64,000 nucleotides of DNA. It comes from Candidatus Poribacteria bacterium. Lineage in GTDB: Bacteria; Poribacteria; WGA-4E; PCPOR2b. Location: positions 4,992,001 to 5,056,000 of the forward strand of contig OZ244042.1 in NCBI GenBank assembly GCA_965215015.1, written 5' to 3'. Under the pieces are notes generated by a model. The model made no database searches, was not told the DNA's origin, and saw nothing but the letters and a program-made list of their open reading frames with translations. A program made the position numbers and the translations under genes. Below are positions 10,353 through 58,742 of this stretch, one piece after another (position 1 is the stretch's first letter; every line of letters starts with the position of its first letter).

Positions 10353-10388
10353 AGAAACAGGTCGTATAACTGAAAAGGAAGGTTTATC

Positions 10389-11920: not shown

Positions 11921-12021
11921 TTAGTTGTAGCACTTTTAACATGGAGACGCCGATTTCGCTGATCCCCTTTTAACGCCAAGTCGCAATGAGTTTAAAATTC
12001 TTTTCTTTGCGGCCCTGCCTC

Positions 12022-20793: not shown

Positions 20794-20928
20794 ACGGACC
20801 TCCTTAATCTATGATGCGGCTAGGAAATTCAGGCTTCCAATGCGAATTCTCCATCCTTGTGCGGTAGATTATAGAGAAAGAGCCACTTAGCACCCGCCTT
20901 GAACTAGCCGAAGGGTTCGGGATGACAG

Positions 20929-21201
20929 TTATCCACGAGTCAACATATTTTCAACTTCTGCGTGTGGACGCGGAATGACGTGCACAGAGATCAATTCACC
21001 GACAACCTTTGCAGCTTCGGCCCCTGCTTCCACTGCGGCTTGGACCGCCCCGACATCCCCACGAACCATGACGGTGACCAATCCACCCCCAATTTCTTCT
21101 TTGCTGACAAGTGTTACGTTGGCAGCTTTGACCATCGCATCTGCTGCTTCAATGGCACCAACTAAACCTCTTGTTTCAATCAATCCTAATGCTTCACCCA
21201 T
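20929..21201 (-). CDS. BMC-H shell protein (EutM/PduA family)
   Basis: [26 protein letters not shown]...GDVGAV...HVIPRPH. Confidence 0.97.
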
Positions 21202-34161: not shown

Positions 34162-35517
34162 TCACGCATCACACCCACCTGCTTCTGTGTAATGTTTCAG
34201 TTTATACTGTAAAGAACGCAGGCTAATTCCCAAAATCTCTGCCGTTCGGGTGCGATTGCCGTCCATTCTTTCAAGGGTTTTGAGGATTAGCTCTTTTTCC
34301 ATCTCCTTCATTGTCAATCCTACAGGTACGCTTTCGATCGGCTGCCGCCCGGTGGACTGAACTTCTTCGGGAAGATGTTTGGGGAGAATTACATCGCCTT
34401 CTGCGAAGAGGACCGCCCGTAGAATGGAGTATTCCAACTCTCGTACATTGCCAGGCCAGTCGTATTGCATGAAAAGTTCTCTCGCCTTTTGGCTGATCAA
34501 TCGGGCGGGTTGATTGTGAGCTCTACTGTGTTTTTGTAGAAAATATTCAGCCAATATCAAGATGTCCTTCTGGCGGGCTCGCAATAGGGGTAGGTGGATT
34601 GGAATTATATTCAAACGGTAGTAGAGGTCCGGACGAAATGTCCCCGCTTCAATGGCCTGTCGCAAGTCTTGATTGGTCGCTGCAATGATTCGTACATCAA
34701 CGCTGATAACCTTTGTGCCGCCCAAACGTTCGATTTCTCCCTCTTGCAAGGCGCGTAACAGCTTGGATTGCAGTTCAATCGACATATTTCCAATTTCATC
34801 TAAAAACAGTGTGCTGCCGTGCCCGCGTTCAAATTTTCCAATCTTTTGGTAAGTGGCTCCAGTAAACGCACCACGCTCATATCCAAAGAGCTCGCTCTCT
34901 AGAAGGTGATCCGGAATGGCGGCACAATTGACAACTACCATCGCCTTTCCTCTGCGCGAACTATTTTGGTGAAGGGCGCGAGCAACCAGCTCCTTCCCCG
35001 TACCGCTCTCTCCTTGGACTAACACTGTAGAATCTGTATCTGCAACCTTTTCGATAATCTTTAAGACTTCGAGGATAGGAGGGCTTTCGCCCACAATTTC
35101 TTCGTAGTTGTGGATGAGTTCATCCCTAGCACTGTGTTCCACTGTGCGCTGGTGCTCTAATGCCTGACCGACCTTTTGCGTAATATGTTCTGGTTGGAAG
35201 GGTTTTTCCAAGAAATCATACGCCCCCCGCTTCGTCGCCTCGACAGCACGCTGGATTGTGCCGTGTGCTGTTAACATAAGCACGAGTAGACCGGGATACT
35301 TTTCGTGGAGGTGTGCAAGGGTTTCGATGCCATCCAAGCGGGGCATTTGAATATCCAAAAGGACTAGGTCCGGTAGGTCCTGATCAATTAATTCCAGTGC
35401 CTCACCCCCATCAGTAGCCGTCGCCACTTCGTACCCTTCCATTTCAAGGCGATCTTGTAAGATTAGAATGGTGTCTGGTTCATCATCGACGATGAGGATT
35501 TTTTCTTGCTCGTTCAT
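34162..35517 (-). CDS. Sigma-54-dependent response regulator (NtrC family)
   Basis: Receiver domain (VDDE, LLDIQMP), GESGTGKE, GAFTGA, LFLDEIG, WPGNVREL, Fis HTH. Confidence 0.95.
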   Translation of the reverse strand: MNEQEKILIVDDEPDTILILQDRLEMEGYEVATATDGGEALELIDQDLPDLVLLDIQMPRLDGIETLAHLHEKYPGLLVLMLTAHGTIQRAVEATKRGAYDFLEKPFQPEHITQKVGQALEHQRTVEHSARDELIHNYEEIVGESPPILEVLKIIEKVADTDSTVLVQGESGTGKELVARALHQNSSRRGKAMVVVNCAAIPDHLLESELFGYERGAFTGATYQKIGKFERGHGSTLFLDEIGNMSIELQSKLLRALQEGEIERLGGTKVISVDVRIIAATNQDLRQAIEAGTFRPDLYYRLNIIPIHLPLLRARQKDILILAEYFLQKHSRAHNQPARLISQKARELFMQYDWPGNVRELEYSILRAVLFAEGDVILPKHLPEEVQSTGRQPIESVPVGLTMKEMEKELILKTLERMDGNRTRTAEILGISLRSLQYKLKHYTEAGGCDA

Positions 35518-35980: not shown

Positions 35981-36415
35981 TTATTGCCCACCGTAACTTT
36001 CTTCTGCCACCATTAAAGCGATTTCCTGCCCCTCCGTTTTACTAAATCGACGTTTCGCACGTTCCATGACATCAATAACTCTGCCATGTTTGGCAAGTCT
36101 GTCCGCTTTGATAATGAGTGTAGTAATTTGAGACTCTTTTGACGACAGATACATTTCCATATCATCTAGCGTTAGCATCTCCAGATCATCGAATGAAATT
36201 CTGCCATCTGCACTGATAAAGAGATTGAATTTCTTACGCGGAAAATCGTGCTTTGTAGCTGACTCCGGCAGCGTCACCGTAAAAGGCGGAGGAACACGCA
36301 TAATCGCTGAAACCATAAAGAAGATTAACAATAGGAAAACGCAGTCAATCATTGGTTCCATCATCAAGGTTTGACCACGTTCCTTGGTTCTCCCCGTCCG
36401 CATTTGTATAGCCAT
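35981..36415 (-). CDS. exbD: ExbD/TolR family protein
   Basis: PMIDCVFLLLIFFMV TM with conserved Asp; IIKADR...VIDVM. Confidence 0.9.
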   Translation of the reverse strand: MAIQMRTGRTKERGQTLMMEPMIDCVFLLLIFFMVSAIMRVPPPFTVTLPESATKHDFPRKKFNLFISADGRISFDDLEMLTLDDMEMYLSSKESQITTLIIKADRLAKHGRVIDVMERAKRRFSKTEGQEIALMVAEESYGGQ

Positions 36416-36429
36416 AGTACCCTCCTTTG

Positions 36430-36876
36430 TTATTCCCTTGCCACCACTGCAAAGCCGATTTTGTCTATACCCGCTTGCTTGGCAATATCCATCACGCTAA
36501 TAATCTGCTCATGTATGACATCTCGCTCTGACTGGATGATTACCATATTCTTAATTTCTTCGGGAGCATGAATAAACTCGGTAAACATCTGATTCATATT
36601 AACAATCTCGTCATTTAAAATCATTGTGCCATACTTCTGAGCACCTTCAGGGTTTGCAATCCTCACGATGAGTCCTTTGGGTTTATTCGGATTCGGTTTA
36701 CCTGGAGGAGGTAATTGAACGCGAATGCCAGGCATCGGTGCAAAGCTAGTCGAAACCATGAAGAAAATGAGAAGCAGGAACACACAGTCGATCATTGGAG
36801 CCATATCGAGCTTAGGCGATCTCCGCTCCCTAGCTGCCATTCGGGTCATACCACTAGGTGCTTGCGTACTTGCCAT
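36430..36876 (-). CDS. exbD: ExbD/TolR family protein
   Basis: APMIDCVFLLLIFFMVS; ISVMDIAKQAGIDKIGF. Confidence 0.9.
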   Translation of the reverse strand: MASTQAPSGMTRMAARERRSPKLDMAPMIDCVFLLLIFFMVSTSFAPMPGIRVQLPPPGKPNPNKPKGLIVRIANPEGAQKYGTMILNDEIVNMNQMFTEFIHAPEEIKNMVIIQSERDVIHEQIISVMDIAKQAGIDKIGFAVVARE

Positions 36877-36959
36877 TTTCGACGCCCTCCTATTCTAAAA
36901 GGTAAGTCTTCCTGTCACCCAAAGGGGATGCCTATAGGGTGACAGGAGAAGGTTGAAAT

Positions 36960-37955
36960 TTACGCGTTGCTTGAGTGACCAAGGATTAGTTGGTTGACGA
37001 TTTCAGTCGAAACCTGTTCAATCTCAAGCACAAATTTGTTGACCCAACTCTCAAAGACCTGGGAGAAAATGAGACATGGAATAGCAATGGTTAAACCACC
37101 GGCGGTCGTCAACAACGCTTGGGAAATACCCCCGGCGAGTGCCTGGGGGTCACCAGTACCTTCCAATGCGATTGTGGTAAACGCGTTAATCATACCCATC
37201 ACTGTACCGAGAAGACCAAATAGCGGTGAGATAACCGCAACCGTACTAATAACAGGAATGTTTCGCTCAAGTTCTGGAATCTCAAGGAGTCCCGCTTCTT
37301 GGATGGATTCCTGTATCTCTTCTTTCGTAATATCTTCCTCTTCGATCTGGGCTTGACTGTATCTTAGCAGGCCCGCTTTCAGAACATTTGCAAGTGGGCC
37401 CCCTGCTTCTTCACAGGTTGAAACCGCTTCCATAATGTTATCGTTACGCAAAGAATCAGTAATACTTGCCATGAACTGTTCTGTACCCAGCTTGGAACGA
37501 CTTCTTAAGAAAGTGAAGAGCCGCTCGATAATGAACGTCAACGCAGCGACAGAACAGAGGAGGAGCGGCCAAAAGACAATGCCAAACTTAGCAAAGAAAG
37601 TGACAATTGTATCTTTTTTGGTCATTTTCAACGGCACATAGTGGTCCCCTCCGGCAACGATGGTGACCGGTTTACCGGTTCGGTCGCCATATCCCTCTTT
37701 GTAAATACTGAGGAGATAACGCCCCGGCGGCAAGCCCGATTTGCTATATTCACCGACCTCATCCGTTGTCGCTTCATGTTCCACACCATCGGTGTCGACC
37801 ACAAGAACTCTAACGTCACTAATCGGCGTTTGTGCTGTCGTGGTGTCCACAACGTTACCACGAACGGTGCCAGTTGACACCTCTTGGGCAAACGCAACAG
37901 CGCCATAAATAATCAACATACTAGCTAGAATTAAGGTTAAACTCAGGTGTTTCAT
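36960..37955 (-). CDS. exbB: MotA/TolQ/ExbB proton-channel protein with N-terminal carboxypeptidase-regulatory-like domain
   Basis: SPLFGLLGTVMGMINAF, GISQALLTTAGGL; signal peptide then GTVRGNVVD...TTDEVGEY...LPPGRYLLSIYKEGY. Confidence 0.88.
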   Translation of the reverse strand: MKHLSLTLILASMLIIYGAVAFAQEVSTGTVRGNVVDTTTAQTPISDVRVLVVDTDGVEHEATTDEVGEYSKSGLPPGRYLLSIYKEGYGDRTGKPVTIVAGGDHYVPLKMTKKDTIVTFFAKFGIVFWPLLLCSVAALTFIIERLFTFLRSRSKLGTEQFMASITDSLRNDNIMEAVSTCEEAGGPLANVLKAGLLRYSQAQIEEEDITKEEIQESIQEAGLLEIPELERNIPVISTVAVISPLFGLLGTVMGMINAFTTIALEGTGDPQALAGGISQALLTTAGGLTIAIPCLIFSQVFESWVNKFVLEIEQVSTEIVNQLILGHSSNA

Positions 37956-38140
37956 GTATTCCCCCTATTGGAGTTTGAAGTGGAGTTAAAACAGAGAGGG
38001 TGCGAAGCGATACCAAACCTATTACCCTCAATTCAAGTCGCCTCAACCACCTCGTATCGGACGACTAAATCCTTATATACTATATCCTAAAGTCTTGGCT
38101 TTATAAACACTTTCGTTTTTTGAAAGTTTCGGTGAAATCA

Positions 38141-38175
38141 AAAAAGTGCCAAGCATAAAAATGCCCGGCACTTTT
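38141..38175 (-). terminator. Hairpin/terminator between the large lipoprotein gene and exbB
   Basis: aaaaagtgccaagcat-aaaa-atgcccggcactttt imperfect inverted repeat. Confidence 0.55.
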
Positions 38176-38183
38176 AGAGGTTG

Positions 38184-41100
38184 TTAGAATCCCATCATTG
38201 CTCGCACGAAGGTGGTATTACTTGTCGTGTGGTCGAGCAAGATAGTGGTTCTCCTGAAACCTGCGAGAATGACGATATTAAAACCTTGCCATTCACCTCG
38301 ACTGATTGACTGGACTTCAAAGATACGCGTACGGATGTCTGGACGGAAGAGAATTGGAATATCAGCATCCGCAAACGCTGGCGTCGCTAAATAGTCTTTG
38401 ATATTTGAATCGCGGTTGGTGAACTTGCGATACTGAAAACCCCCGAGGACATTCATCCTCTGGGTGAACTGATAATCCAAACGAACACCGAGCACATCTT
38501 CACGGCTACGTTTGTTAAATCGCAGATATTCAACGACCTCCGGATCATCAGGAACAAATTTCGTCGGATCCAGCGGGTTGATATAGGTGCCGCTTAAAAT
38601 ATCATCAGTCGTATGATCAAACGCTCGGGTCCAAATATATTTCGTCATCGGTGTCAGCGTTAAATCTTCACCAATTCTGTCCACACCGGGCAAATCGCCC
38701 AATGGGATTTCATATTTGGCCCTGATAATCGTAATCTGATTTCGGACAGTTTTCTCTTGAAAACGACGTGGTATCCAGTTTTCCTGATCATAGATTAAGC
38801 CAAGATCCTCTGGATCCAGCGGGTTAAGCCCGTGGTCCGGATAGAACGGAAATGACTTCCGGTCACCATCAGCGCGGACCTGCTCATCCGGCACCATGAA
38901 ATCAACATGATCGTCCTTTTCTTGCGATGGGTCATCTTGGGCAAAATCCAGCGCAATGGCATCCTCTTCATCGAGTCCCAACTGTTTTCGCCAGTCAACG
39001 AGGAACTTGGTCTCGAGTGTTAAGTTGGGTATCGCACTGTAAAGAAACTGAAGGCTTGTCACGTTGACTCGTGTCTTGAAAAAATCAAGAAAATCAGATT
39101 CCTGTGTGGCATCCAACTCGCCAGGTCGCAAGGTGATCGAGTAATCTGGAATATCATCGTCAACACGGACAAAGCGGTTTTGGAACAGCACTGTTCCGAA
39201 ATCTGGAACATCACGCTGGAAGCTCAGATGGGCATATTTTGAATCGTTTTTCCGCTGGCTGGAAACTTCACTCTCATTTAACCAACCTAATTTGAGGGTT
39301 AGGTTATCGAGTAAGTCGTAGCTAGCTTCGACATGGTATCCTTCGCGATTGATACCGTATTCATACTGCGGCTCAAAATCATCTTCCAATGAATCAACAA
39401 CGCCATTATTATTAAGGTCAATGAGATCTTCAAAAACCGGAGGATCTGCCTCAAAGATGAGGAAGTCTTCTTGGTAATCGAGGATGCCATTCTGGTCACG
39501 GTCATCGGCTTGCGGCAGGACGCCATCAAAGTCGATGCTATCTGGCCAGTCATCGTCGTCATCATCGTCTTCAATGAGTGAGTAATTAATCTCATCGAAG
39601 GGAAGGATTTCTGCGCCGGATTCAGGTGTTCGTTCAAGAGAATAGGTCGCATCTCTTGCATCGTTCGCGCCAAAGTTATAGTAAGTAGTTGTATAACCCG
39701 GATCGATATGGTAAAAAGTTCCCTCAAGGAAGAGTTTGCCGTAACGCTGCCTGAGATTGACAAACCAGGCGGTTTCACGCCCCATCTCTCCGTCATCATT
39801 CGGATCACCATTCAACTTGGCTTCAAACCTTTCCCCTTCTGTTTCGGAGTATGTGGGGATGCCGTTGGCATCAAGAGGAACTCCAAAGGTTGGGTTAAGA
39901 TTCCCATCGTCCAACTGCTCTCTTTCATCTATGGTAACGCCAGCACCTTCAATTTCAGGATTCAGGCGGCTAAAACCAATCTGGTCCCTCGGAATCGTTG
40001 GATACTGCTTAAATTTGCCGTTAATTGAATAGTGCGCCCGGATAAAGGTGTTGAATAGGGTACCCTCCAGATCGATGCCATACAGCACACCCGCGCGTGC
40101 TGCGCCGTAGCGATATCGAATCGTACGCGATTGGCCTTCATCCTCCCACCGACTTGGGTTATGTTTCAGGCTTGCCCGGTTTTGCGTATAATGTTCGGAT
40201 CGACCATAGTTGCCAGGGGCCTGAAGCACATCACGATACGGTGTTTCAATACGACCATCTTCGGTCTTAATCCATTCCGCTGCGAGTGGATCGTCCGATC
40301 TGTTTGCCTCACTAAATCCGATGACGACGATATTATAGTCGCCAGCAACCGTCATCTCAAATTCAATGGACTTCACTGTGCGGGGATCGATGGGTCCATT
40401 GGGAAGTTCTTCAGAAGTGAGATCCAAGGTATACTGCATCTTATTGAACCCTTCGGCAATTTTCCATTGTCCATCAGCAGATTCAATCGGTTCCGCACTG
40501 CCTTCTACAGCAACGATATCATCAATAAATACTGAGATTGTCTGTGACCTCTCAGGACCCGCCGGCCGGTCTGGGCCTTCATCGGGGAAACCGGAAAGTG
40601 CTTGTGTGATAACGTGTACTTTCATGCCCTTAACGGCAACACCGACTCCACCCTGAATCTTTGCGACTTGGGTTTCCCTTTCGAGATCATGCGCTAATCC
40701 CCCATAATTGTTATCCTCAGGAGAATCATCACGAAAGACAACAACGATTCTGTCTGGTGGTGTATTGGCAACCGAACCACCGAACAGAGGATTCTCGACC
40801 CGTTCCGGGTGTTCCTTGTGGAGATTGACATAGGTGAGCCCTACGCGGAACACATCTCCTAGCAACCCTTGGGCGCGAAACCCGATTAAGCGAGCATTTT
40901 CAATATGGCGCAGTCCCACATCATCGCTGAAGCCATTACGGCGCCCTAGCGTTGGTGCGAGGTTTGCCGCTGCATCTGACAACTGCACCGGGTTAGAAAT
41001 GCGGGAGTTCAGCAAAGTGAAAAGGTGACGTTCTTGAGAGAACGAGATGTCCCATCTGAAGCCATCAAATTCAGTTTTGTAGATGATATACCGGTTAGGG

Positions 41101-41519
41101 AATAGTGTTTGGGGCTTAATACGCATATTATCCCCAATAACAAATTGTGTAAATCTGCCACGGAAGTTATCTTCAGTTAAAATCTGGCGGTCCAACTGGG
41201 CGGAAAATCTTTCGCTATCAAGCTGACCGGTCCAACCCAAAATCAGTTCTCCGTGTTGATCGAATTCTTTCACCTCGCGGTAATTATACACTTCGTTACC
41301 TTCGAGGAGTTCTCTACCAAACAGGTCATAGAAGAACTGAGGTTCTTCTTCTAATTGGAAACGGTCGGAAAAGTTTGCCTGTCCTTCGACCGTCGGTAAA
41401 AGCGGTTCTTGTGGACCAAGACTCGTTGCACCGCACCCATAAAGCACAAAACAACTGATTAGCCCCGCTAATAAAAAAAGAACATCAGGTGAGCGTTTTG
41501 AAAACTTCATTACTTTCAT
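38184..41519 (-). CDS. Large putative outer-membrane lipoprotein with acidic Ca-binding-like repeats
   Basis: AAGGAGG RBS at the MKVMK start; lipobox-like LYGC; amphipathic beta-strand segments; DDDDDDDWPD / DRDQNGILD / DLNNNGVVD; C-terminal Phe. Confidence 0.7.
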   Translation of the reverse strand: MKVMKFSKRSPDVLFLLAGLISCFVLYGCGATSLGPQEPLLPTVEGQANFSDRFQLEEEPQFFYDLFGRELLEGNEVYNYREVKEFDQHGELILGWTGQLDSERFSAQLDRQILTEDNFRGRFTQFVIGDNMRIKPQTLFPNRYIIYKTEFDGFRWDISFSQERHLFTLLNSRISNPVQLSDAAANLAPTLGRRNGFSDDVGLRHIENARLIGFRAQGLLGDVFRVGLTYVNLHKEHPERVENPLFGGSVANTPPDRIVVVFRDDSPEDNNYGGLAHDLERETQVAKIQGGVGVAVKGMKVHVITQALSGFPDEGPDRPAGPERSQTISVFIDDIVAVEGSAEPIESADGQWKIAEGFNKMQYTLDLTSEELPNGPIDPRTVKSIEFEMTVAGDYNIVVIGFSEANRSDDPLAAEWIKTEDGRIETPYRDVLQAPGNYGRSEHYTQNRASLKHNPSRWEDEGQSRTIRYRYGAARAGVLYGIDLEGTLFNTFIRAHYSINGKFKQYPTIPRDQIGFSRLNPEIEGAGVTIDEREQLDDGNLNPTFGVPLDANGIPTYSETEGERFEAKLNGDPNDDGEMGRETAWFVNLRQRYGKLFLEGTFYHIDPGYTTTYYNFGANDARDATYSLERTPESGAEILPFDEINYSLIEDDDDDDDWPDSIDFDGVLPQADDRDQNGILDYQEDFLIFEADPPVFEDLIDLNNNGVVDSLEDDFEPQYEYGINREGYHVEASYDLLDNLTLKLGWLNESEVSSQRKNDSKYAHLSFQRDVPDFGTVLFQNRFVRVDDDIPDYSITLRPGELDATQESDFLDFFKTRVNVTSLQFLYSAIPNLTLETKFLVDWRKQLGLDEEDAIALDFAQDDPSQEKDDHVDFMVPDEQVRADGDRKSFPFYPDHGLNPLDPEDLGLIYDQENWIPRRFQEKTVRNQITIIRAKYEIPLGDLPGVDRIGEDLTLTPMTKYIWTRAFDHTTDDILSGTYINPLDPTKFVPDDPEVVEYLRFNKRSREDVLGVRLDYQFTQRMNVLGGFQYRKFTNRDSNIKDYLATPAFADADIPILFRPDIRTRIFEVQSISRGEWQGFNIVILAGFRRTTILLDHTTSNTTFVRAMMGF

Positions 41520-42828
41520 TTGCCTCCTTGAGGAAATCATAAATTACATTTGACGTAAAAGTGAGGATATAAAACCTCCATAATCACGTTCATCCAAGCA
41601 CCAAGTTAAAATAAGGAGATGGAATTAATCACAGCTTTGGAGTTTTAGACTGTTTATCAATCCCTCTCCCATTTCAACCTGCGTCAGTAGTGAAACATAT
41701 CGTAACCTCCTTTAACAAGGATTTATTAGCAATACAAAACTATATTAGTTGCTTAGATTTCATACAAAAACAGTCATTACATTTTTTCTGCTAGAGTTGT
41801 ACCCCAGCGGTATCAGGTTGAGGCTTGCAGCCCAATCTATCGGGATACAAGCATCTGAAAACAGTTGGCATGCAAATAATTAACGTTCAAAGTTAGACAC
41901 TGATTAAGGTTTAGGCATCGCTCATTGAGTGAGCCGGATAATTTACATGCTTGACTTGGAAATCATTCACGTTTTTCATCCTTCTTGCCACCACTGTTGC
42001 GCGATGTTCCGAGTATCTTTGCGCTCTCTTTTGACATGAGCCAACACGAAAATTCCATGTCTAACCTGTATTCAATTTATGCTTTTTTTCTCGATGAAAC
42101 TCTGCTCTGAAAAAAAGTAACTTCTAAGATAACACTTCTGCAATTTTCTGTCAAGTGTTTTTTCTCAAATTAATTATGATGCACCGGAATAGGTCAAGAG
42201 GGGCCTGCACCCTTGACATTGCAACGAATCTTTGTGATTCTTGGGACGTTTGCACGAGGTATAAATCAAACGCAGTTAGAAGCGGAAGCATTCCCAGATA
42301 TTTGAGCAAAAATGTTGGCCAACTGTGCCTTTTGGTTGTCGCAAACATTAACCGGACAAAAGGCACCGGACAGAAGACATTGAAAGAGGTTGGTAAAAAA
42401 TACAGGCAGGCTAAATATCGGTTGGATAAGCATTGAGGTCAAAACTACATAAATTTTGGTAATCGCAGATTGCAGAAATCAAGATGAGTGATGCACTCCC
42501 ACGCCCTGAAAGGGGCTTCTCACCTTTCGGTTGAGAAAACCCACTTCCCACGTAGCACAGGACAACATTTTGCGAGCCGCTCCCTTGACATATGACATAA
42601 ACTTTAACGTGCAGCCTACCATTACTGCCAGCAACAGCGTCGAGGTTATAAGGCTTGTACTAAGCCTAGGTACACGCCAAGACATACGACTACAGGGACA
42701 GTTTAATGTAGACAGTCCCTGATACTTTTCAATGGATTTCGTCCATTTTGACAGCAGCCAACTACATTCGGGAACCATCACAAGCCATAGCAAAGACTTG
42801 CTGGAAATTTTAAGAGGCGCACCAAAAA

Positions 42829-43410
42829 TTACGGGAGGTTGTTGGCGGCTCGAATCTGTTCCTCGCTATACGCCTCATCATTCCATTCAGTGATACGCCA
42901 TTCTTGCTGATCGGAATCCTCATTCTTTCTCAACTCAAAGGTAAAAACATTATTCCCTTCTGCGAACCAGCCCGTATAGCCTCCTTCAAGGGAATCGCCA
43001 TCAGCGACAAACCCTTGGATTCGATAGTGATTTCTGACCTCTGCTCGTGTCCGATCTGTATTCAGTTGCACCTCGGGTGGCTCAGATAACTCAATCTCAA
43101 TATCTTGGAACCTTGCAAAAACACGCTTCGCAGAATCTCTTTCGTCCCGGATATCGTCAAATATAACATCATCTGTTTTATCAGCCTTTGTGCCCATATC
43201 CGAAACGTAAAGAAATCCGTCTTCCCAGAACGCACTCATATACCTATCAAGGTCTTCGCTCTGATAGCCTTCGCGCCAGTTTTTCAGAACTTGGTTAATC
43301 AACACAATCTCTTTTTCCTGGGGTTTAGCGACACTACTCACATCCCCGCAACTTGTAAGAAAACTAAAAGCGAGCAATAGCCCGGTGACTTTGGCAAATA
43401 CTTTTAACAT
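42829..43410 (-). CDS. Lipoprotein with NTF2/SnoaL-like domain
   Basis: GGAGG RBS, lipobox LTSC; WREGYQSEDLDRYMSAF...WRITEW pattern. Confidence 0.65.
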   Translation of the reverse strand: MLKVFAKVTGLLLAFSFLTSCGDVSSVAKPQEKEIVLINQVLKNWREGYQSEDLDRYMSAFWEDGFLYVSDMGTKADKTDDVIFDDIRDERDSAKRVFARFQDIEIELSEPPEVQLNTDRTRAEVRNHYRIQGFVADGDSLEGGYTGWFAEGNNVFTFELRKNEDSDQQEWRITEWNDEAYSEEQIRAANNLP

Positions 43411-43453
43411 GGCTGAACTACCTCCATAAGGCCAAGTTGCATTTATTAGCCTT

Positions 43454-43990
43454 TCAAAAGGATTTGACAATACCTAGTTGAAGTTGTGTTGGAGTTGCCT
43501 TGAGTTGCACGCCTAATCCTTCAAGCTGTTTCATATCATCAATGAGTTGATCGGCTTTCGTCTCTGCATTGTACAAATTTGCACCAACATAGGAATCAAT
43601 CAAGCTGTACGCCCATACGCCCGCTGCTGCGAGCAGAAAAAATTGCCGCAGCTTATAACGTTGATTCGCTCGATTGTATTGAAAAATAGCTTCTGGAGAC
43701 TTATCATCGTTTAAGGCAACCGGAACATACTCATTGTTGTAAACATCTTGAAAAGATTGGTGAGTAATCAATGCACCAATAAGGAGACCACTTGTTCCCA
43801 CAAAGGAGGTGGTACCCAGAAAACGGTTATGGGCATAAAACTGCCCCCAGCCGGGTAGAATTGCAGACCGAACAACAGCACCAATCGGTGAAATAAGACG
43901 TAAGCCTTTGTCCGGCTGCGCGGAACTGATTTCAACCCACCAACATAGAGATAAAACGGGAATCAAAAGTGTTATACGAAACAACTTCAC
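43454..43990 (-). CDS. DUF5683-like membrane protein
   Basis: AVVRSAILPGWGQFY and VWAYSLIDSYV motifs; start moved to GTG 43990 because a promoter overlaps the ORF-track start. Confidence 0.65.
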   Translation of the reverse strand: MKLFRITLLIPVLSLCWWVEISSAQPDKGLRLISPIGAVVRSAILPGWGQFYAHNRFLGTTSFVGTSGLLIGALITHQSFQDVYNNEYVPVALNDDKSPEAIFQYNRANQRYKLRQFFLLAAAGVWAYSLIDSYVGANLYNAETKADQLIDDMKQLEGLGVQLKATPTQLQLGIVKSF

Positions 43991-44031
43991 CAGAGATCGG
44001 GTCAAATTCTTATACCTCTCTCTAAAGGCAT

Positions 44032-44060
44032 ATAATAGCAAAACCTGAAAGTCTTGTCAA
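44032..44060 (-). promoter_or_regulatory. Sigma70-type promoter
   Basis: Minus strand TTGACA-17bp-TATTAT with extended TG. Confidence 0.65.
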
Positions 44061-44120: not shown

Positions 44121-45725
44121 CTATTTTCTTCGACTACGTGTTTGGGTTCTTGTGGTATTACGCCTACGTTCTTTTTTCTCATCATCGTCATCGTTACTGC
44201 TTGAGCTTGCCGACGTAGATCTTTGCAACCGCGAAGTCGCACTAGATGAACGAGTGCTTGATTGCTTAGATCTTCTTCGCGTTTCTGTACTTTGTTTTAC
44301 GCTTGAAGATTTGCTACGTGAGGGTGGTGAATTCAACCGACCTCTCGAAGACTGTGTTCGGTTGTAGAGGCGAACGCGACGTTCTGCATTTGATCGGGTA
44401 GATACTTCGTCATCAGATGAATAGCGTTTGTCCTTTGTAGAGAACCGGAAGTGATCATATTGGTGAGTCCGACGAACTGTGTTGGATCGGGTATCTCTCT
44501 CAGATGTACTTAAACGCTTCCGTTTTAAAATCTGCTGAGTTGCACGGTAAGATCGGGTGGAGAGGTCAGGAGTAGGACGCTGGATACGACGCTGCCTCTC
44601 TATTGCAGCGTTTGATCTATTTCTCGTAGCGGGGAGTTTCCGTTTTTGAGAAAGCGTCGAATGTTGGATGACTCGATCCGCGAGAACCGGTGTCTGACGG
44701 TGTTCCGTAATTAGCGAACGAACACGGGTTTGTACATTGGTTTTATTCGTTTTGGAGGTGGTGACTGATAATCGACTCCGAGAATACTCACGGCGGGTAT
44801 TTTCGTGTGTTGCAGTCCAGCGATTCAGCCGTCGCGTCTTAGGCGATTTATCAACGCGGACATCCACGTGGTAGTGGGAACCACGGTGGTAGTGACGGGG
44901 GTAGCGACGATAGTAATTGTGGAGATAAACGCCGTAAGCGCGACGAACAGCAAGATAGTGATAATCATAGACCGGGTAACTCCATCGAATGTAGTACCCC
45001 AGATCTGTAGAGTAATAAAATGGACCATCGTAAAAATAGAGATAGGTATATCTGTACCAAGGTTGCCAATGGTAATCTCGCGCATAACGGTGTATAACAC
45101 GCACATCAGGCTGTCGTTGATAGGTCACAACATCAACATACTCGACGTCAAGTTGCTCACCATTTTCGGCAACAATGTGCATCTCAAGCATACCGTTATC
45201 AACATGCCCTGCCGTTGCAATTTTTATTGTCTCTGAGCGACGCTTTGCACGCAAAAAGAAGGTATCGCCATAGAGGGTTTCCTCCTCACCGTTATCATTA
45301 TAGCGTCTGCGGGAGTATTCACGTTTGGTATTCCGAATCCAAACACGACCTGCAATCTCCTCGTAATCAAAGGCCGCTCGATGTGGTTCCCCTCGGTAGC
45401 GTACCAGAATCTCAACATACTGAGCTTGTCGAGGAATTTCAAAAAGATAGATTGCACTGGCTATCGCAAATTCGTAGTTTTCCTCTTCATCGGATTCACT
45501 TGCCCAAGCTGTTAGACGGAGCCCGTTTCCAAAACGAGGGCTTGCGGTGACAGTTGCATTACCGCGCTCGATCCAGTCCTCAACATCGCCTGCGTCTCGG
45601 TGTTCACGACTTACTCGATCAGAAAAGTAATCGTATTCATAGTCTGCTAGAACAGCAGGGGGCATAAGCATCAATAAGAGGATTATTAGTATCGGACATA
45701 CGGGAAATGAGATATCGAATTTCAT
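44121..45725 (-). CDS. Secreted hypothetical protein with Tyr/His-rich middle and long Arg/Ser/Thr-rich tail
   Basis: GGAGG RBS before MKFDISF, signal peptide, long uninterrupted ORF, terminator downstream. Confidence 0.7.
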   Translation of the reverse strand: MKFDISFPVCPILIILLLMLMPPAVLADYEYDYFSDRVSREHRDAGDVEDWIERGNATVTASPRFGNGLRLTAWASESDEEENYEFAIASAIYLFEIPRQAQYVEILVRYRGEPHRAAFDYEEIAGRVWIRNTKREYSRRRYNDNGEEETLYGDTFFLRAKRRSETIKIATAGHVDNGMLEMHIVAENGEQLDVEYVDVVTYQRQPDVRVIHRYARDYHWQPWYRYTYLYFYDGPFYYSTDLGYYIRWSYPVYDYHYLAVRRAYGVYLHNYYRRYPRHYHRGSHYHVDVRVDKSPKTRRLNRWTATHENTRREYSRSRLSVTTSKTNKTNVQTRVRSLITEHRQTPVLADRVIQHSTLSQKRKLPATRNRSNAAIERQRRIQRPTPDLSTRSYRATQQILKRKRLSTSERDTRSNTVRRTHQYDHFRFSTKDKRYSSDDEVSTRSNAERRVRLYNRTQSSRGRLNSPPSRSKSSSVKQSTETRRRSKQSSTRSSSATSRLQRSTSASSSSNDDDDEKKERRRNTTRTQTRSRRK

Positions 45726-46098
45726 TGCAACTCCTCCCTTTGGGTGCATTCAACAACGCAGATTTTCATAACTCGCTCACATAATGCAAGGAGTTCGCTC
45801 ATGCCTGTTACAACGCATGAGCGAACCTGACGTTATCCACCAATAGAATTCGTAATGTAATGTATAAAGCAATTTAGATGCCATCATTGATTTTACCGCT
45901 GTCTCGTCTACAGCAGCAAAGGGACCTAGTGTCCGTTGAGCCCAAATCGTAGCAATAGAGATACGTAGCTGTGGCAAAAGCGATACCCAATATTGATTGA
46001 CAGATTGATTCATATTAAACGAGCAAGCCGACGTCAACAGAACCTAGTGAGCCAAATGGGTTTCAGTTGGACGATTTCTTAGCATGAACCTACAGATG

Positions 46099-46857
46099 TT
46101 AATCCCTTGCCACGAGTCGAATGCCCCTTCGGGCTGCTAAATCCCGTGCAAGTGGTGTAATAATAGTTGGATTCGTGTAACCAAATTCGCGTACAGCTGG
46201 TGGAAGCTCAGCAATCACCGAAGCAGTGATAATGTTCTGTCTCCCTACTGAGTTCGAGTTAAAATGGTGTGTACTGTCGCTTAGAATTGTCTCAGCAATC
46301 TGATCAGTTGTAACAAATTGAACCCCGAAGCCCGACAGGGTTTTAATGTAATCTTGCCCTAACTTTGAGATTTCAGGTGGGATTTTAGCCCCATCCGGAA
46401 TTTCAAAACCATCAGACGTTGCTATAACCTGGTTTCTGCGAAGCAACGCTTGGAATATAAGATAAGCACACGGCGTGTCTGCCATTCCCAAACTCATCTT
46501 CGCTGCCATCGCACAAGATAGCGTCGGAATAATGATTAAGGAGAAATCTTCGGTGAACGGTCGTAGAGTTGTAATTTCACCGTCTACGAAAACCTGTTCG
46601 TTCCCGCATGTGGATCGAATACGGGAGATGTCCAGAATCCGTGCCGCCATATCTGACAAAATCGCTGTGACAATATAACCTTGCTGGATACACCTGTCAA
46701 GCTGTGCTAGAGGTGGTGCAAGATCGGTTTGAGCTGCATCGAATATCGCCAGAATCCGTTTGTCGGATTGGGAAGATACCAAGGCGATTCCTTGTTGTGT
46801 GAGAACTTTCGCCACTTCTGCTTCAATCCGCCGAATTATTGCTGGACTGAATTCCAC
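46099..46857 (-). CDS. BMC-associated flavoprotein-like protein (PF02441-like)
   Basis: N-terminal amphipathic EP-like helix; IIPTLSCAMAAKMSLGMADT; C-terminal IITPLARDLAARRGIRL. Confidence 0.7.
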   Translation of the reverse strand: MEFSPAIIRRIEAEVAKVLTQQGIALVSSQSDKRILAIFDAAQTDLAPPLAQLDRCIQQGYIVTAILSDMAARILDISRIRSTCGNEQVFVDGEITTLRPFTEDFSLIIIPTLSCAMAAKMSLGMADTPCAYLIFQALLRRNQVIATSDGFEIPDGAKIPPEISKLGQDYIKTLSGFGVQFVTTDQIAETILSDSTHHFNSNSVGRQNIITASVIAELPPAVREFGYTNPTIITPLARDLAARRGIRLVARD

Positions 46858-46867
46858 TTAGCTACCC

Positions 46868-47599
46868 CTAATCTCTCAGCAACTCGATGCCTTCTCCTCC
46901 CCGTAAGCCGGCAGCATTCGCGTCATCTGTATCTAGATGCATCTGCGGCACATAGCTCGGTGATATTTTCGGATGAATGTTTTCAAAAGTCAAGGCGCGT
47001 TCGCCGGGGATGCGAACTTTTAATAAATCCCTTCCGTGTATCCCCCAATGTGCTGCGTCTTGGGGAGTCATGTGAATATGCCGCGTCGCACAAATTGCGC
47101 CCTCTTCTAAGTGAATAGATCCCTTGGGACCAATCAATACAATCGACTCTGAACCGGCGAGATCGCCCGAATCGCGAATCGGGGGATTTAATCCCAGTCG
47201 AATCGCATCAGTCTGGGCGAGCTCAACCTGAGAATAATCTCTCACGGGACCGAGAATCCGAAGCCCCTCAATTGCTTGCATACGTCGGCCTACAACGGTC
47301 AATGTTTCTTTTGCTGCAAATGCACCGGGCTGATACAAAGGGGCGTGAACGGTCAATTGATGCCCCTCACCGTACAAAATCTCCAAGTGTTCCTGAGTTA
47401 CGTGTGCATGTCGCGCTGAAACACCAATTGGAATTTTCTGCCGTTGAACGACGGCGTCACAGGCACGCTGCCCCGCCTCGCAGGTTCGCAAGGCACAGCC
47501 GCCACACGGTTCGCCTCCGGTTTCAGGATTCAAAGCAACCTGTTTTAATTGTTCAAGCACTTTATGAGTGACCAGTTCAATGAGTGCTGTGTCATCCAT
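46868..47599 (-). CDS. pduL: Phosphate propanoyltransferase/acetyltransferase PduL
   Basis: GVSARHAHV, LYQPGAFAAKE, QVELAQTD, RDSGDL, RHIHM, MHLDTDDANAA; N-terminal encapsulation peptide. Confidence 0.93.
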   Translation of the reverse strand: MDDTALIELVTHKVLEQLKQVALNPETGGEPCGGCALRTCEAGQRACDAVVQRQKIPIGVSARHAHVTQEHLEILYGEGHQLTVHAPLYQPGAFAAKETLTVVGRRMQAIEGLRILGPVRDYSQVELAQTDAIRLGLNPPIRDSGDLAGSESIVLIGPKGSIHLEEGAICATRHIHMTPQDAAHWGIHGRDLLKVRIPGERALTFENIHPKISPSYVPQMHLDTDDANAAGLRGGEGIELLRD

Positions 47600-47627
47600 C
47601 CGCTATCTTCTCCAACTTGATGTTCCA

Positions 47628-47960
47628 TCAATTTGCCGCTGCATCGCTGGCGAGATCAATCGTCAATGTGTTATCATCGGTCTGCTCTTGGCTAGGTAAA
47701 ACCGATTCAACCTCTGCATGTGGGCGTGGGATGACGTGGACCGATACAACTTCTCCGACTCGTGCGGCTGCTTCCGCACCGGCATCTGTGGCTGCTTTGA
47801 CAGCACCGACATCGCCACAAACCATGACCGTGACATATCCACCGCCGATCTTTTCATAGCCGATAAGTTGGACATTCGCCGCTTTGACCATCGTATCAGC
47901 CGCTTCGACGCTTCCAACAAACCCTCTCGTTTCAACCAACCCTAAAGCCTCTCCAGCCAT
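47628..47960 (-). CDS. BMC-H shell protein with acidic C-terminal extension
   Basis: ALGLVETRG...KAANV...[13 protein letters not shown]...HVIPRPH plus ~20 aa tail. Confidence 0.95.
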
Positions 47961-56562: not shown

Positions 56563-58734
56563 ATGCGAACTCGGGTTACGCTTAAAGCAGTGCTTTATTT
56601 ATTCGGTATCTTAATAGGGGTAGGCCTTTGTACCCCCTTAATTGGTTTTAATAACGCGTTGGCTTCGGATTGGCCCAGTTGGCGAGGTCCCAATCAAGAT
56701 GGCTCATCTTCACAAACCGGTTTAATTTCAAGCTGGTCCCTACTAGATGGCGAAAACTTAATTTGGAAGGCAGATTTTATGGGGCGTTCCACACCAATCG
56801 TTTTGAACGGTCGAGTTTTCGTCATCGGGCGCGTTGGGAGCGACATCACCGAGCAGGAACGAGTCGCCTGCTTTGAGGCCGAAACGGGGAGGCTACTCTG
56901 GGAACACCGATTCAATGTTTTTCACAGTACCATCCCTTTTAACCGACTGGGCTGGACCAGTTTGGCGGGGGATAGGGAAACGGGTTACATCTACGCCCAC
57001 ACTATTAGCGGCGTGTTTGCCTGTTTTGACAAGGAGGGAAAGGTTATTTGGTCACGCTCTTTGACGGAAGAATTTGGTCGATTCACCGGCTACGGGGGAC
57101 GCGTTGTTACACCTGTCGTTGATGGAGACTCTGTGATCCTCAGTTTTCTTAACACCAGCTGGGGAAGCCATGCCGCAATGCGCCATCGTTATTTCGCCTT
57201 TGACAAACGGACCGGTGAGGTGCTGTGGACAGCGACGCCCGGTGGCCCCCCGAAAGATACGACTTACCCTGTCGCCGTTGTAGCGGAGATAAATGGCCGT
57301 CGGTTGTTGATTGACAGTAATTCGGACGGTCATGTGTACGCAATGGATGTGCAAACGGGTGAGAAAGTTTGGGGATTCCAAGTCAGTCAGGGACCGCTCA
57401 ATGCGTCAGTGGTCGTAGATGGCACACGGGTTTACGCAAGCCACAATCGGGAGAATACGGACACAACAGTGATGGGGCGCGTTGTCTGCATTGATGGAAC
57501 GGGTACAGGGGATATTACCAAGTCACACGAACTCTGGCGAGTTGATGGCATAGAGGCGGGTTATAGCTCTCCAGCAATAGCCGATGGTCGCCTTTACGTT
57601 GTGGACAGCTCGGCGAATTTACACTGTCTCAACGGCGAAACCGGGGAGGTGCATTGGACGCATAGCCTCGGCACCGTGGGTAAAGGATCCCCTGTTGTCG
57701 CCGACGGTAAAATCTATGTCACGGAAGTCAACGGGCACTTTCACATCCTGCAACCGGGTGAAAACGAGTGCAAAACGCTCAGCACAACACAGATTGAAAG
57801 GGAATCGGGCCGTTATGCGGAGATCTACGGCTCACCTGCCATCGCCTACAGTCGAGTTTATTTTACTACTGAGGAAGGGCTGTACTGTTTGGGGGGGCAA
57901 CGGGCTTCCACGCCCGCCTCAATCCAGATTGTCCCCGCCGAAGTTTTAGCCCCGTCGGGGGAAAGCGTCCAATTTAGTGCTCGTGCTTTTGACGATAAAG
58001 GTACACTAATCAGCGAAGGGGAGGCCGAGTGGTCGCTCAATGGATTGTCGGGAATGATCGACAAGAACGGAAAACTCACCCTTGAACTGAGCCGCCCCGG
58101 TCAAGCAGGAACAGTATCGGCGAAAATCGGCGAACTAAGCAACTCCGCACGAGTCCGCGTCATTCCACAGTTGCCGTGGCACGAGGACTTTGAGTCGATA
58201 GAGGTGGGGAAGAGTCCGCCGCATTGGGTCCGCGCAACCAACCGATTCGTCGTCCGTGAGATGGATGGAAACAAAATTCTCGTCAAACCGCCTGCCCGCC
58301 GTGGATTGCACCGCTCCAACGTCTATATCGGGCCCCCGAACATGAAGGACTACACCCTCCAAGTCGATTTGCTGGGGACTAAACCGAAGCGAAACCTCCC
58401 GGACATGGGACTCATCGCCCATCGTTACACCCTTGAGATGCAGGGCAATCACCAACGACTTCAGGTGCTTTCGTGGCGATCAGACCTCCGAATGGCCAAG
58501 TGGGTGGATTTCAAGTGGGAGCCGAACGTCTGGTACACCATGAAAATGACGGTAGATATCGCCGATGATACAGCGCGCGTCAAGGGTAAAGTTTGGGTTA
58601 GAGGTGAACCGGAACCTGAGGAATGGACAATTATCGTGGAAGATCCGCTGCCGAATCGGGAAGGGAGTCCGGGTATCTACGGCTATTCGCCTGCTGAAAT
58701 CTACTACGATAATCTGAAGGTTTGGGGAGATTGA
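56563..58734 (+). CDS. Secreted PQQ-like beta-propeller protein with Ig-like and C-terminal lectin-like domains
   Basis: Signal peptide, DWPSWRGP, repeated TG...W blades, SPVVADGKIYV. Confidence 0.85.
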   Translation: MRTRVTLKAVLYLFGILIGVGLCTPLIGFNNALASDWPSWRGPNQDGSSSQTGLISSWSLLDGENLIWKADFMGRSTPIVLNGRVFVIGRVGSDITEQERVACFEAETGRLLWEHRFNVFHSTIPFNRLGWTSLAGDRETGYIYAHTISGVFACFDKEGKVIWSRSLTEEFGRFTGYGGRVVTPVVDGDSVILSFLNTSWGSHAAMRHRYFAFDKRTGEVLWTATPGGPPKDTTYPVAVVAEINGRRLLIDSNSDGHVYAMDVQTGEKVWGFQVSQGPLNASVVVDGTRVYASHNRENTDTTVMGRVVCIDGTGTGDITKSHELWRVDGIEAGYSSPAIADGRLYVVDSSANLHCLNGETGEVHWTHSLGTVGKGSPVVADGKIYVTEVNGHFHILQPGENECKTLSTTQIERESGRYAEIYGSPAIAYSRVYFTTEEGLYCLGGQRASTPASIQIVPAEVLAPSGESVQFSARAFDDKGTLISEGEAEWSLNGLSGMIDKNGKLTLELSRPGQAGTVSAKIGELSNSARVRVIPQLPWHEDFESIEVGKSPPHWVRATNRFVVREMDGNKILVKPPARRGLHRSNVYIGPPNMKDYTLQVDLLGTKPKRNLPDMGLIAHRYTLEMQGNHQRLQVLSWRSDLRMAKWVDFKWEPNVWYTMKMTVDIADDTARVKGKVWVRGEPEPEEWTIIVEDPLPNREGSPGIYGYSPAEIYYDNLKVWGD

Positions 58735-58742
58735 GGCGAGTC

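Follow-up and report, generated by a model that had tools for sequence, protein, structure and literature searches.

A giant, predicted outer-membrane protein family that may partner surface proteins with T9SS-type C-terminal domains, beside a probably general Ton-type motor in Poribacteria

We analysed a 64,000-nt stretch of DNA from a Candidatus Poribacteria bacterium (assembly GCA_965215015.1, contig OZ244042.1, positions 4,992,001 to 5,056,000), called the window below. Six of its minus-strand genes encode a DUF5683 protein, an NTF2-like lipoprotein, a giant protein of 1,111 amino acids (aa), an ExbB and two ExbD proteins. A first-pass annotation, made from the letters alone, had described these six genes in one orientation, and their content and order were borne out by open reading frame (ORF) calls and Pfam. 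The giant protein belongs to a large family that shows near-obligate pairing with one lectin-like family of proteins ending in a T9SS-type (type IX secretion system) C-terminal domain (CTD), which points to an undescribed cell-surface module. We tentatively prefer to read the giant protein as a partner of CTD surface proteins in the outer membrane, and the motor as probably the ordinary Ton energiser of the cell.

The giant protein has no Pfam or NCBIfam model, and PDB searches by phmmer and by profile gave no real match; the lone hit, a restriction-enzyme subunit at E 0.014, was rejected. We found 349 relatives in a 90%-clustered set, the best 120 being all poribacterial (67-92% identity), and 278 representative clusters in a 50%-clustered set at E <= 1e-3. 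Most of these clusters measure 850-1,150 aa and share 22-26% identity with the giant protein. The family was detected in Poribacteria, Latescibacterota, Gemmatimonadota, Ignavibacteria and Bacteroidota metagenome-assembled genomes, with at least seven copies on one Latescibacterota chromosome. Its hallmark is an acidic block of D/N-rich loops (residues 645-727), the best conserved part, with 41% mean identity to distant members vs 12-19% elsewhere. Shorter paralogues of 650-786 aa share mainly this block. None of 37 distant members reached a Pfam cut-off.

All 12 poribacterial rows of the alignment contain the lipobox V[LF]YGC, as expected of a bacterial lipoprotein, and all 12 end in FVRAMMGF. 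Among ten poribacterial-type genes examined, nine encode [VLIF][LFVI][YF]GC and the tenth, in locus L057, LGGC. Most non-poribacterial members have an ordinary signal peptide ending in AQ and no lipobox; an aromatic residue is the last one in 31 of the 85 family members aligned. The lipobox and the C-terminal Phe pointed out in the first-pass annotation are conserved in the poribacterial rows, and its acidic Ca-binding-like loops form the best conserved part of the family. Its view of a putative outer-membrane protein is supported by such features, and no known family was matched. We infer that the giant protein is an outer-membrane beta-barrel; a crude amphipathic-strand scan returned 11 segments only, a result that neither favours nor opposes the richness in beta-strands noted at first pass. 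Its Atlas neighbours are unnamed clusters from Latescibacterota and Gemmatimonadota, and DUF6029 is the closest cluster with a name (0.88, a lead only). SlpA_C (PF21620) gave weak local matches in 5 of 37 and 4 of 22 relatives (19.5-30.2 bits vs a 35-bit cut-off), which map to residues about 466-625; the window protein had none.

Other known outer-membrane families were not recovered. Neither Plug (PF07715) nor TonB_dep_Rec (PF00593) matched the window protein, nor 22 members at E <= 1, and hhalign gave a probability of 0.5% between the 85-sequence family profile and a 29-sequence profile of TonB-dependent transporters (TBDTs). Genuine TBDTs of the same phyla are easily detected, as with the one beside L053 (62.1 bits). 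The Pfam and NCBIfam libraries, which presumably contain SprA models, revealed no SprA-family signature in the window protein, and none was seen in the 22 members at E <= 1. Similarly, the PorP/SprF models PF11751 and NF033709 matched neither the window protein nor the 22 members.

Family neighbourhoods were collected with a degenerate DNA pattern scan of species-representative genomes. At least 128 stretches were found, and 80 loci with flanks (numbered with the prefix L) were used, so that the neighbourhood counts given here describe a sample. They contain 99 distinct giant-family ORFs, 89 of which reach 800 aa or more, with 80 full-length non-poribacterial members. A CTD-protein gene lies within 7 kb of 68/80 of the latter and within 300 bp of 40/80. 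Each of the 41 adjacent CTD genes has the same orientation as the giant-family gene beside it. CTD-gene density drops about 8-fold, from 3.83 per 10 kb in the first kilobase to 0.42-0.50 at a distance of 5-9 kb. Another family member was present within 300 bp in 40 of the 80 cases, and 18 of 76 units are tandem arrays of 2-3 genes.

Once the CTD is removed, 82 of the 89 CTD neighbours form a single family. Compared with the PDB, a 28-member profile of this partner family retrieved discoidin/CBM32 folds (E 1e-8 to 1e-5) and the immunoglobulin (Ig) folds of FlgD and the PorU CTD. At E <= 0.01, the partner CTDs matched TIGR04131 (type B) in 17/28 and TIGR04183 (type A) in 7/28. Type-B CTD genes are known to be linked to genes of PorP/SprF shuttles, which anchor the cargo (PMC9143113, PMC12618676). 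Linkage to type-B CTD cargo is thus found for the family (68/80 within 7 kb, 41/41 co-oriented, 17/28 type B at the same E value), and not in the window. The link to CTD proteins proposed in the first-pass annotation stands at the family level, with the same qualification that the window locus has no CTD partner.

Within 7 kb of the 80 non-poribacterial members we also counted genes for peptidyl-prolyl isomerases (PPIases; 33), large tetratricopeptide-repeat (TPR) proteins (18), DUF4159 (18), DUF6785 (15) and PorP/PorV-like proteins (4). The DUF6785 neighbours are polytopic, with 9-13 hydrophobic segments. In three loci, L068 (97.3 bits, cut-off 90), L012 and L014, a PorV/PorQ-family gene stands between the partner and giant genes. 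The L068 genes form a tight operon encoding a CTD protein, PorV/PorQ, the giant-family protein, a TPR protein, ExbB, ExbD, two DUF4159 proteins and DUF5683. PPIase, TPR and PorV-like genes were all absent from the window locus. Glycoside-hydrolase-like genes adjoin some members (L003, L005, L043, L054). At L005:8990-15575 (-), a 650-aa poribacterial paralogue is encoded between an alpha-L-fucosidase-like gene and a gene for a 1,518-aa Reg_prop/PorZ-propeller protein, a layout that resembles a polysaccharide-utilisation locus.

If type-B CTD cargo and its PorP/SprF shuttle are taken as a model, the giant family would act in the outer membrane as carrier, anchor or channel for surface proteins of one dedicated family, which combine a discoidin/CBM32-like lectin domain with a T9SS-type, mostly type-B-like CTD. 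In this scheme, the T9SS would export the CTD protein, after which the giant protein, which may bind Ca2+ through its acidic loops, would retain it on the cell surface. The pair would form a glycan-capturing surface module, and captured material might pass onward via a SurA-like PPIase and the polytopic DUF6785 protein; this onward passage is suggested by the frequent presence of PPIase and DUF6785 genes alongside. The lectin domain, DUF6785 and the occasional glycoside-hydrolase neighbours suggest glycan capture, and perhaps uptake.

Several observations weigh against this scheme. The CTD counts were made at E <= 0.01 and not at the curated cut-off, one member scoring 20.6 bits against the TIGR04131 cut-off of 35. 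Given how numerous CTD proteins are in these phyla, chance will account for some of the adjacency; the sole control for this is the decay with distance. Members of the lectin-CTD partner family are absent from the window; 7 of 9 poribacterial orthologues are not beside a CTD gene, and the neighbour in L043 and L054 is a different, WD40-CTD protein. The case for a barrel consists of the signal peptide or lipobox, the C-terminal aromatic residue, the sub-threshold SlpA_C matches and the DUF6029 lead at 0.88, and hhalign of the family against four PorV/PorQ-like neighbours gave 0.2%. As regards the motor, the single ExbB set of SAG 3G, the single-cell genome of a related poribacterium that is discussed below, may be an undercount. 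ExbB/ExbD linkage is moreover found in three lineages (Poribacteria, L068 with L010, and L015) and is operonic in L068, a hint of real energy coupling that the reading of a general motor underplays.

The motor itself was assigned from MotA_ExbB and ExbD domains (Pfam) in adjacent genes, which place it among ExbB/TolQ-ExbD/TolR motors. Its ExbB has a signal peptide and a periplasmic Ig-like CarboxypepD_reg domain (PF13620, E 4.8e-14, residues 30-107) ahead of three transmembrane segments. The fusion recurs in 117 of the 120 best homologues, the other three being shorter or truncated entries that lack one domain. This protein corresponds to the 'BTP' of PMC5087111, described with MotA/TolQ/ExbB and carboxypeptidase-regulatory-like domains. 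With NCBIfam, ExbB matched TolQ best (101 bits, cut-off 221), followed by ExbB (70.7 bits), and the first ExbD matched TolR best (53.3 bits, below the cut-off). The motor is therefore slightly nearer TolQ/TolR than ExbB/ExbD, always below curated cut-offs; since the TolQ, ExbB, TolR and ExbD equivalog models all fell short, membership is established at the level of the family. None of the 52 window ORFs matched TonB_C, Plug or TonB_dep_Rec, and no TonB or TolA partner for the motor was found among them.

The wider genomic setting can be judged from the published expression table of SAG 3G (PMC5087111). Across the table, pfam01618 occurs in one row and pfam02472 in two rows, all at the BMC-A locus that is equivalent to ours. 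TonB_C (pfam03544) is listed for six genes on other contigs, and Plug (pfam07715) and pfam00593 elsewhere in 14 and 5 rows, respectively. FlgD_ig (pfam13860) is found in 40 rows, and there are no rows for SprA_N (pfam14349), PorP_SprF (pfam11751), GldM (pfam12080/12081) or pfam13585. The first-pass annotation had called the system TonB-less. This description fits the window, which has no tonB, tolA or plug receptor, and it holds at the locus only, because TonB_C and Plug genes lie elsewhere in SAG 3G. A system distinct from Ton is not what these rows indicate: one ExbB/ExbD set accompanies the TonB_C and Plug genes. TonB-dependent import of B12 for propanediol use has been proposed for these bacteria (PMC5087111). 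The claim that the machine differs from the canonical T9SS is opposed by a 2026 preprint on a sponge proteome, in which 'cell-surface protein SprA' and MotA/TolQ/ExbB channels are among the leading poribacterial identifications (10.64898/2026.10.20.760564); with SprA listed there, the phylum probably has a canonical translocon.

Two further domain combinations were noticed during these searches. The 'ExbD' match in L062 (1293-4247, -) is a poribacterial 984-aa protein with a BlaR1-type M56 peptidase and a C-terminal ExbD-like domain, and it was discarded as a motor component. FGE-sulfatase (pfam03781) is a domain that we take to be the fold family of GldK/PorK. In SAG 3G, gene 2265143967 (2,685 nt) joins it to TonB_C (pfam03544; table of PMC5087111).

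Transcription units were delimited in the window and compared with published expression data. The giant gene has its own sigma-70-type promoter (Table 1), and the promoter block CTTGACAGAAAATTG..AGTG.TAT.TTA, conserved 5' of the orthologue in L008, L011, L013, L021, L030 and L071, is the only intergenic DNA conserved among the poribacterial loci. Between promoter and ORF runs a leader of about 600 nt (41520-42125, -), the folding energy of which is -170.6 kcal/mol vs -142.6 +/- 6.4 for 20 shuffles (z -4.4). Sequence conservation in the leader is confined to the promoter and the ribosome-binding site. AGGAGG precedes the ORF, and the alignment with relatives allows a start at ATG 41519 or 41510. 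A strong hairpin (-20 to -28 kcal/mol per 45 nt) follows 0-13 nt past the giant stop codon in the window and in 6/6 related loci, and terminator-like hairpins bracket exbB-exbD-exbD. Owing to the promoter and the hairpins, the giant gene looks monocistronic and the three motor genes look like a separate unit. This is consistent with the high transcription of the motor genes and the zero coverage on both sides of them (PMC5087111), where ExbD* was also immunolocalised at the cell membrane.

According to the supplementary table of the same study, the SAG 3G giant orthologue (3,402 nt, 'hypothetical protein') is expressed at 3.03x housekeeping, ExbB at 4.87x, the ExbD genes at 2.64x and 3.33x, and a Wzz-like gene at 0.15x. 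Overall, the giant gene looks monocistronic and highly expressed, and it encodes a predicted outer-membrane lipoprotein. The exbB(Ig-fused)-exbD-exbD set is most likely a general Ton/Tol-type proton-motive energiser working with TonB encoded elsewhere: it is transcribed separately, and no second such set is listed for SAG 3G, which has several TonB and Plug genes. In the form given at first pass, the headline of a TonB-less energised translocon lacks support.

A sigma-54 promoter for the giant gene was considered and rejected, as matches in the window are at chance frequency (29 found vs 30.4 expected). One sigma-54-like site, TGGCATCTAAATTGCT (45868-45883, -; 1 mismatch), lies upstream of a gene for a 542-aa protein and recurs in 2/6 loci only. 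A gene for an NtrC-type sigma-54 activator (34162-35517, -) is located just beyond the second exbD and is not syntenic elsewhere.

Linkage between motor and giant gene differs inside and outside Poribacteria. Nine poribacterial-type ORFs are full-length: six have ExbB-ExbD-ExbD downstream, L043 and L054 do not, and L057 is cut by the contig end. Of the eight informative poribacterial loci, six thus keep the linkage, at 70-77% protein identity. In a FastTree phylogeny, which carried a long-branch warning elsewhere in the tree, L043 and L054 fall within the clade that has the motor; both adjoin a WD40 protein with a CTD instead of the motor. A genuine ExbB occurs near 2/80 non-poribacterial members; phmmer had given 3/80, and L053 was removed as its 'ExbB' is a TBDT sharing the Ig domain only. 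In L010, where the giant-family gene is cut by the contig end, it is followed by a TPR gene and then ExbB. The first-pass annotation had made conserved linkage to exbBDD a check on its proposal, and the linkage holds within Poribacteria and fails outside (2/80, plus the truncated L010). Its recurrence in three lineages leaves coupling to ExbBD energy possible but unproven.

The stretch between the NTF2-like and giant genes (41520-42828, about 1.29 kb) contains no ORF above 104 aa. In 6/6 related loci (L008, L011, L013, L030, L057, L071), an intact ORF of 479-490 aa occupies this position, and the one in L013 (6003-7406) matched the Pfam models GNVR (31.9 bits) and Wzz (25.9 bits). Intact Wzz and GNVR domains, present in the related loci, are missing from the window, where tblastn of the intact proteins retrieved pieces of 30-81 aa only (22-45% identity, E 3e-4 to 1e-2). 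Judging by these pieces, the gap is a decayed Wzz/GNVR chain-length-determinant gene. What had been noted as a plain 1.3-kb gap is indeed without a long ORF and is better described as a pseudogene remnant. Rfam gave no credible match on the gap and leader, and no family at gathering score anywhere in the window.

Alternative explanations were weighed against these data. That motor and giant gene are incidental neighbours, a housekeeping Ton/Tol motor next to an abundant structural outer-membrane protein (for example an SlpA-like base of a Ca2+-stabilised surface layer) with no functional tie, is possible, if on the unlikely side. It would account for the separate transcripts (PMC5087111; hairpins), the sole ExbB/ExbD set of SAG 3G in a table with six TonB_C genes, the genuine ExbB near 2/80 non-poribacterial members only, the two poribacterial orthologues without an adjoining motor, the weak SlpA_C similarity in relatives and the very high expression of the giant gene (3x housekeeping). 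However, adjacency is kept in 6/8 informative poribacterial loci at 70-77% protein identity and recurs in L068 (as a tight operon), L010 and L015, giant gene and motor are expressed at similar levels, and the SlpA_C matches are all sub-cut-off, with none in the window protein. We regard as unlikely an atypical TonB-dependent importer, a plug-less Sus-like channel fed by the lectins, energised by ExbBD via TonB encoded elsewhere and passing its substrate to DUF6785. The lectin-like partners, the polytopic DUF6785 neighbours, the glycoside-hydrolase-like genes beside members in L003, L005, L043 and L054, the sensor-like Reg_prop protein beside the short paralogue in L005, the tandem multi-copy organisation reminiscent of susC/susD, the ExbBD linkage in three lineages and the TonB_C genes of SAG 3G are all consistent with it. 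Nevertheless, Plug and TonB_dep_Rec matches were absent in 22 members at E <= 1, hhalign gave 0.5% to the 29-sequence TBDT profile although genuine TBDTs of the same phyla are easily found, no TonB box could be defined, and ExbBD is seldom adjacent outside Poribacteria.

The proposal of the first-pass annotation, a dedicated machine driven by proton-motive force that exports or imports CTD proteins through the giant barrel, is powered by ExbBDD and stands apart from T9SS and Ton, appears improbable. The neighbourhoods do repeat parts of the SprA Extended Translocon, namely a barrel, PorV-like protein, PPIase, TPR protein, CTD substrates and, in L068, an ExbBD-type motor (PMC10994853). SAG 3G combines 40 FlgD_ig rows with none for SprA_N, PorP_SprF or GldM, and the sole MotA/ExbB-type motor in its table adjoins the giant gene at similar expression. 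Against this stand the 'cell-surface protein SprA' listed for Poribacteria (10.64898/2026.10.20.760564), the TonB_C and Plug genes of SAG 3G, the separate motor transcript (PMC5087111), motor linkage that is not conserved family-wide, the lack of a SprA-family HMM match and a window locus with no CTD partner. The same SAG 3G rows, the lone motor beside the giant gene and the L068 operon keep open a T9SS-like pathway without SprA or GldLM in Poribacteria and some FCB relatives, in which the giant family would be the outer-membrane conduit or carrier, FlgD-Ig/CTD-tagged lectin-like proteins would reach the surface through it or onto it, and the Ig-bearing ExbB/ExbD motor would supply energy; we give this version little credence. 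Least probable is polysaccharide export, with the giant protein as outer-membrane porin for the polymer of the upstream Wzz/GNVR co-polymerase. A Wzz/GNVR gene does lie directly upstream of the orthologue in 6/6 related loci, and DUF6029, the nearest named Atlas cluster (0.88), is a possible porin near OPX (outer-membrane polysaccharide export) genes (PMC9603273). Yet in the window the giant gene is intact and the Wzz-like gene decayed, the SAG 3G orthologue of the latter has a 20-fold lower expression than the giant gene, no Poly_export/OPX, Wzx or Wzy domain was detected among the 75 neighbour proteins scanned or in the window, Wzz linkage is absent outside Poribacteria, and the Atlas value is only a lead. 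The tentative preference thus remains with an outer-membrane partner of CTD surface proteins next to a general energiser.

The locus as such is not new. It has been published as the poribacterial 'BMC-A genomic region', which comprises ExbD*, ExbD, BTP, hypothetical proteins, an exopolysaccharide-type protein, PduL and a bacterial microcompartment (BMC) shell protein (PMC5087111). That paper left the giant gene as a plain hypothetical and described neither its family nor the CTD partners. The giant family and its partner module appear undescribed in the open full-text literature on the neighbouring DUFs, on poribacterial T9SS, TonB and ExbB, and on the T9SS of Gemmatimonadota or Latescibacterota; our full-text search found no printed description of the giant family, most subscription journals lying outside the literature covered. 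The first-pass annotation had put the system forward as a candidate undescribed translocon; the locus is in print, while for the family and its CTD partners no description was found.

Features of the locus are listed in Table 1. The minus-strand run goes on upstream of DUF5683 with the 542-aa gene, a eut-like gene, pduL and a BMC shell gene. The last three lie upstream of the 542-aa gene in L008, L013, L030 and L071, and partly in L011; the whole block from BMC to exbD was found in L008, L013, L030 and L071. The NTF2-like lipoprotein (42829-43470) shows a lipobox, LTSC, in its translation and likely starts at an internal ATG, giving about 193 aa; a PDB search found no relative, and its synteny is kept in L008, L011, L013, L030, L057 and L071. 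DUF5683 is also present in the giant-family loci L012 and L068. The 542-aa protein has an extremely basic, Ser/Arg/Thr-rich tail of about 250 aa, and family and PDB searches with it gave no match. Its homologue in SAG 3G was called 'outer membrane-predicted RhoGEF (COG5422)' (1,596 nt, 1.13x housekeeping; PMC5087111), a label that belongs to this protein and not to the giant gene.

Table 1. Features of the poribacterial locus and layout of the giant protein (window positions in nt; residues where stated)
Feature	Position	Strand	Description
Terminator-like hairpin past second exbD	35901-35878	-	hairpin scan
Second ExbD/TolR-family protein, 144 aa	35981-36415	-	PF02472, E 1.4e-19, 70.8 bits
ExbD/TolR-family protein, 148 aa	36430-36876	-	PF02472, E 2e-22, 80.1 bits
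ExbB/TolQ-family protein, 331 aa	36960-37955	-	MotA_ExbB PF01618, E 3.5e-31, 108 bits
Terminator-like hairpin 3' of giant gene	38142-38175	-	15 pairs then T run, directly after stop
Giant ORF, 1,111 aa (1,108-1,111 by start)	38184-41519	-	no Pfam/NCBIfam/PDB match
Giant protein, signal peptide and lipobox	residues 1-29		
Giant protein, conserved N-terminal region	residues about 55-330		
Giant protein, variable region	residues 331-560		
Giant protein, strand-like region	residues about 466-625		
Giant protein, acidic loops	residues 645-727		D/N-rich, Ca-binding-like
Giant protein, C-terminal region			ends in Phe
Sigma-70-type promoter for giant gene	42126-42154	-	TTGACA, 17 nt, TATCTT, with TG
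Wzz/GNVR (polysaccharide co-polymerase-like) remnant	42208-42462, approximate	-	tblastn pieces
Small lipoprotein, weak NTF2/SnoaL-like signature	42829-43470	-	sub-threshold SnoaL_4, SnoaL_3, E about 6e-3
DUF5683 membrane protein	43454-44041	-	PF18935, E 4e-11, 43.6 bits vs cut-off 26.7; two hydrophobic segments
Secreted 542-aa protein	44121-45749	-	Tyr-rich domain, Ser/Arg/Thr-rich very basic tail; in conserved block
eut-like hypothetical gene, pduL (PTAC, phosphotransacylase), BMC shell gene	46099-47960	-	microcompartment end of BMC-A region

Further observations were made across the window. Two microcompartment gene groups lie about 25 kb apart: 19363-21201 (-), with an aldehyde dehydrogenase and a BMC shell gene, and 46868-47960 (-), with PduL and a BMC shell gene. 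The 1,263-aa protein encoded at 12022-15813 (-) joins DUF6259, dockerin type I and a FlgD-Ig/T9SS type-A-like CTD; its matches to FlgD_ig (37.2 bits) and TIGR04183 (26.8 bits vs a cut-off of 23) confirm the FlgD/T9SS-like CTD assigned to it at first pass. At 10283-12050 (+) there are three tandem 616-bp repeats (84-99% identity, G+C 0.42), each with an ORF of 92-99 aa that has an N-terminal hydrophobic segment and a coiled-coil-like 'LRNEI' repeat. An AAA_21/AAA_15 (AbiEii-like) ATPase gene follows a PQQ-propeller gene at 58722-59948 (+).

In a dominant sponge symbiont, few genes are transcribed as strongly as the giant gene (3x housekeeping in SAG 3G). Its family spans several poorly known phyla, may reach many copies per genome and has no Pfam, NCBIfam or PDB entry. 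A module of lectin-CTD and giant proteins would lie where type IX secretion and nutrient capture meet. Should the two proteins pair physically, PorV and PorP/SprF would be joined by an unrelated second class of outer-membrane partners for CTD-bearing proteins, which would also give a handle on surface building and host contact in uncultured bacteria. A tempting over-reading is also corrected, the 'TonB-less motor' being most likely an ordinary Ton energiser.

Among known systems, the PorP/SprF shuttles of type-B CTD proteins offer a close parallel: the giant-family gene is likewise tightly linked and co-oriented with type-B-like CTD genes, and several paralogous pairs of cargo and shuttle, or cargo and anchor, occur per genome (PMC9143113, PMC12618676). 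However, the giant protein is 3-4 times longer, does not match PF11751 or NF033709 and reaches 0.2% with PorV/PorQ-like proteins; PorV/PorQ-like genes are additional to the giant gene in some loci, and the window has no adjacent CTD partner. SprA is about 2,400 aa long, whereas the giant protein has 1,111 aa, no SprA HMM match and an ExbB/ExbD-type motor instead of GldLM. The likeness to the SprA (Sov) Extended Translocon lies in a very large outer-membrane protein, 36-stranded in SprA, with PPIase, PorV-type and TPR proteins, CTD substrates and a motor driven by proton-motive force (PMC10994853). In the giant family these parts are scattered over loci and never all together.

TonB-ExbB-ExbD systems with TBDTs, including SusC/SusD, combine an ExbB/ExbD motor, a plugged outer-membrane transporter and surface glycan-binding, SusD-like lipoproteins. 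The giant family resembles them in having ExbB/ExbD beside an outer-membrane protein, a multi-copy tandem organisation and surface glycan-binding partners. In contrast, the giant protein lacks Plug and TonB_dep_Rec (hhalign 0.5%), the locus has no tonB, and the partners are CTD-tagged and not SusD-like lipoproteins. The SlpA barrel of Deinococcus (PF21620) is a similarly large and abundant outer-membrane protein, and relatives match it weakly at residues about 466-625, but all matches are sub-cut-off and none is in the window protein. Export through a polysaccharide co-polymerase (PCP), OPX protein and beta-barrel (PMC9603273) is brought to mind in Poribacteria, where a Wzz/GNVR gene lies directly upstream of the gene for a large outer-membrane protein; OPX and polymerase genes are absent, and the co-polymerase is decayed in the window and weakly expressed in SAG 3G. 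Finally, the published BMC-A region (PMC5087111) is the same block, with BMC shell, PduL, hypotheticals, Wzz-like, giant, BTP and two ExbD genes, and differs in that the Wzz-like gene is decayed in the window.

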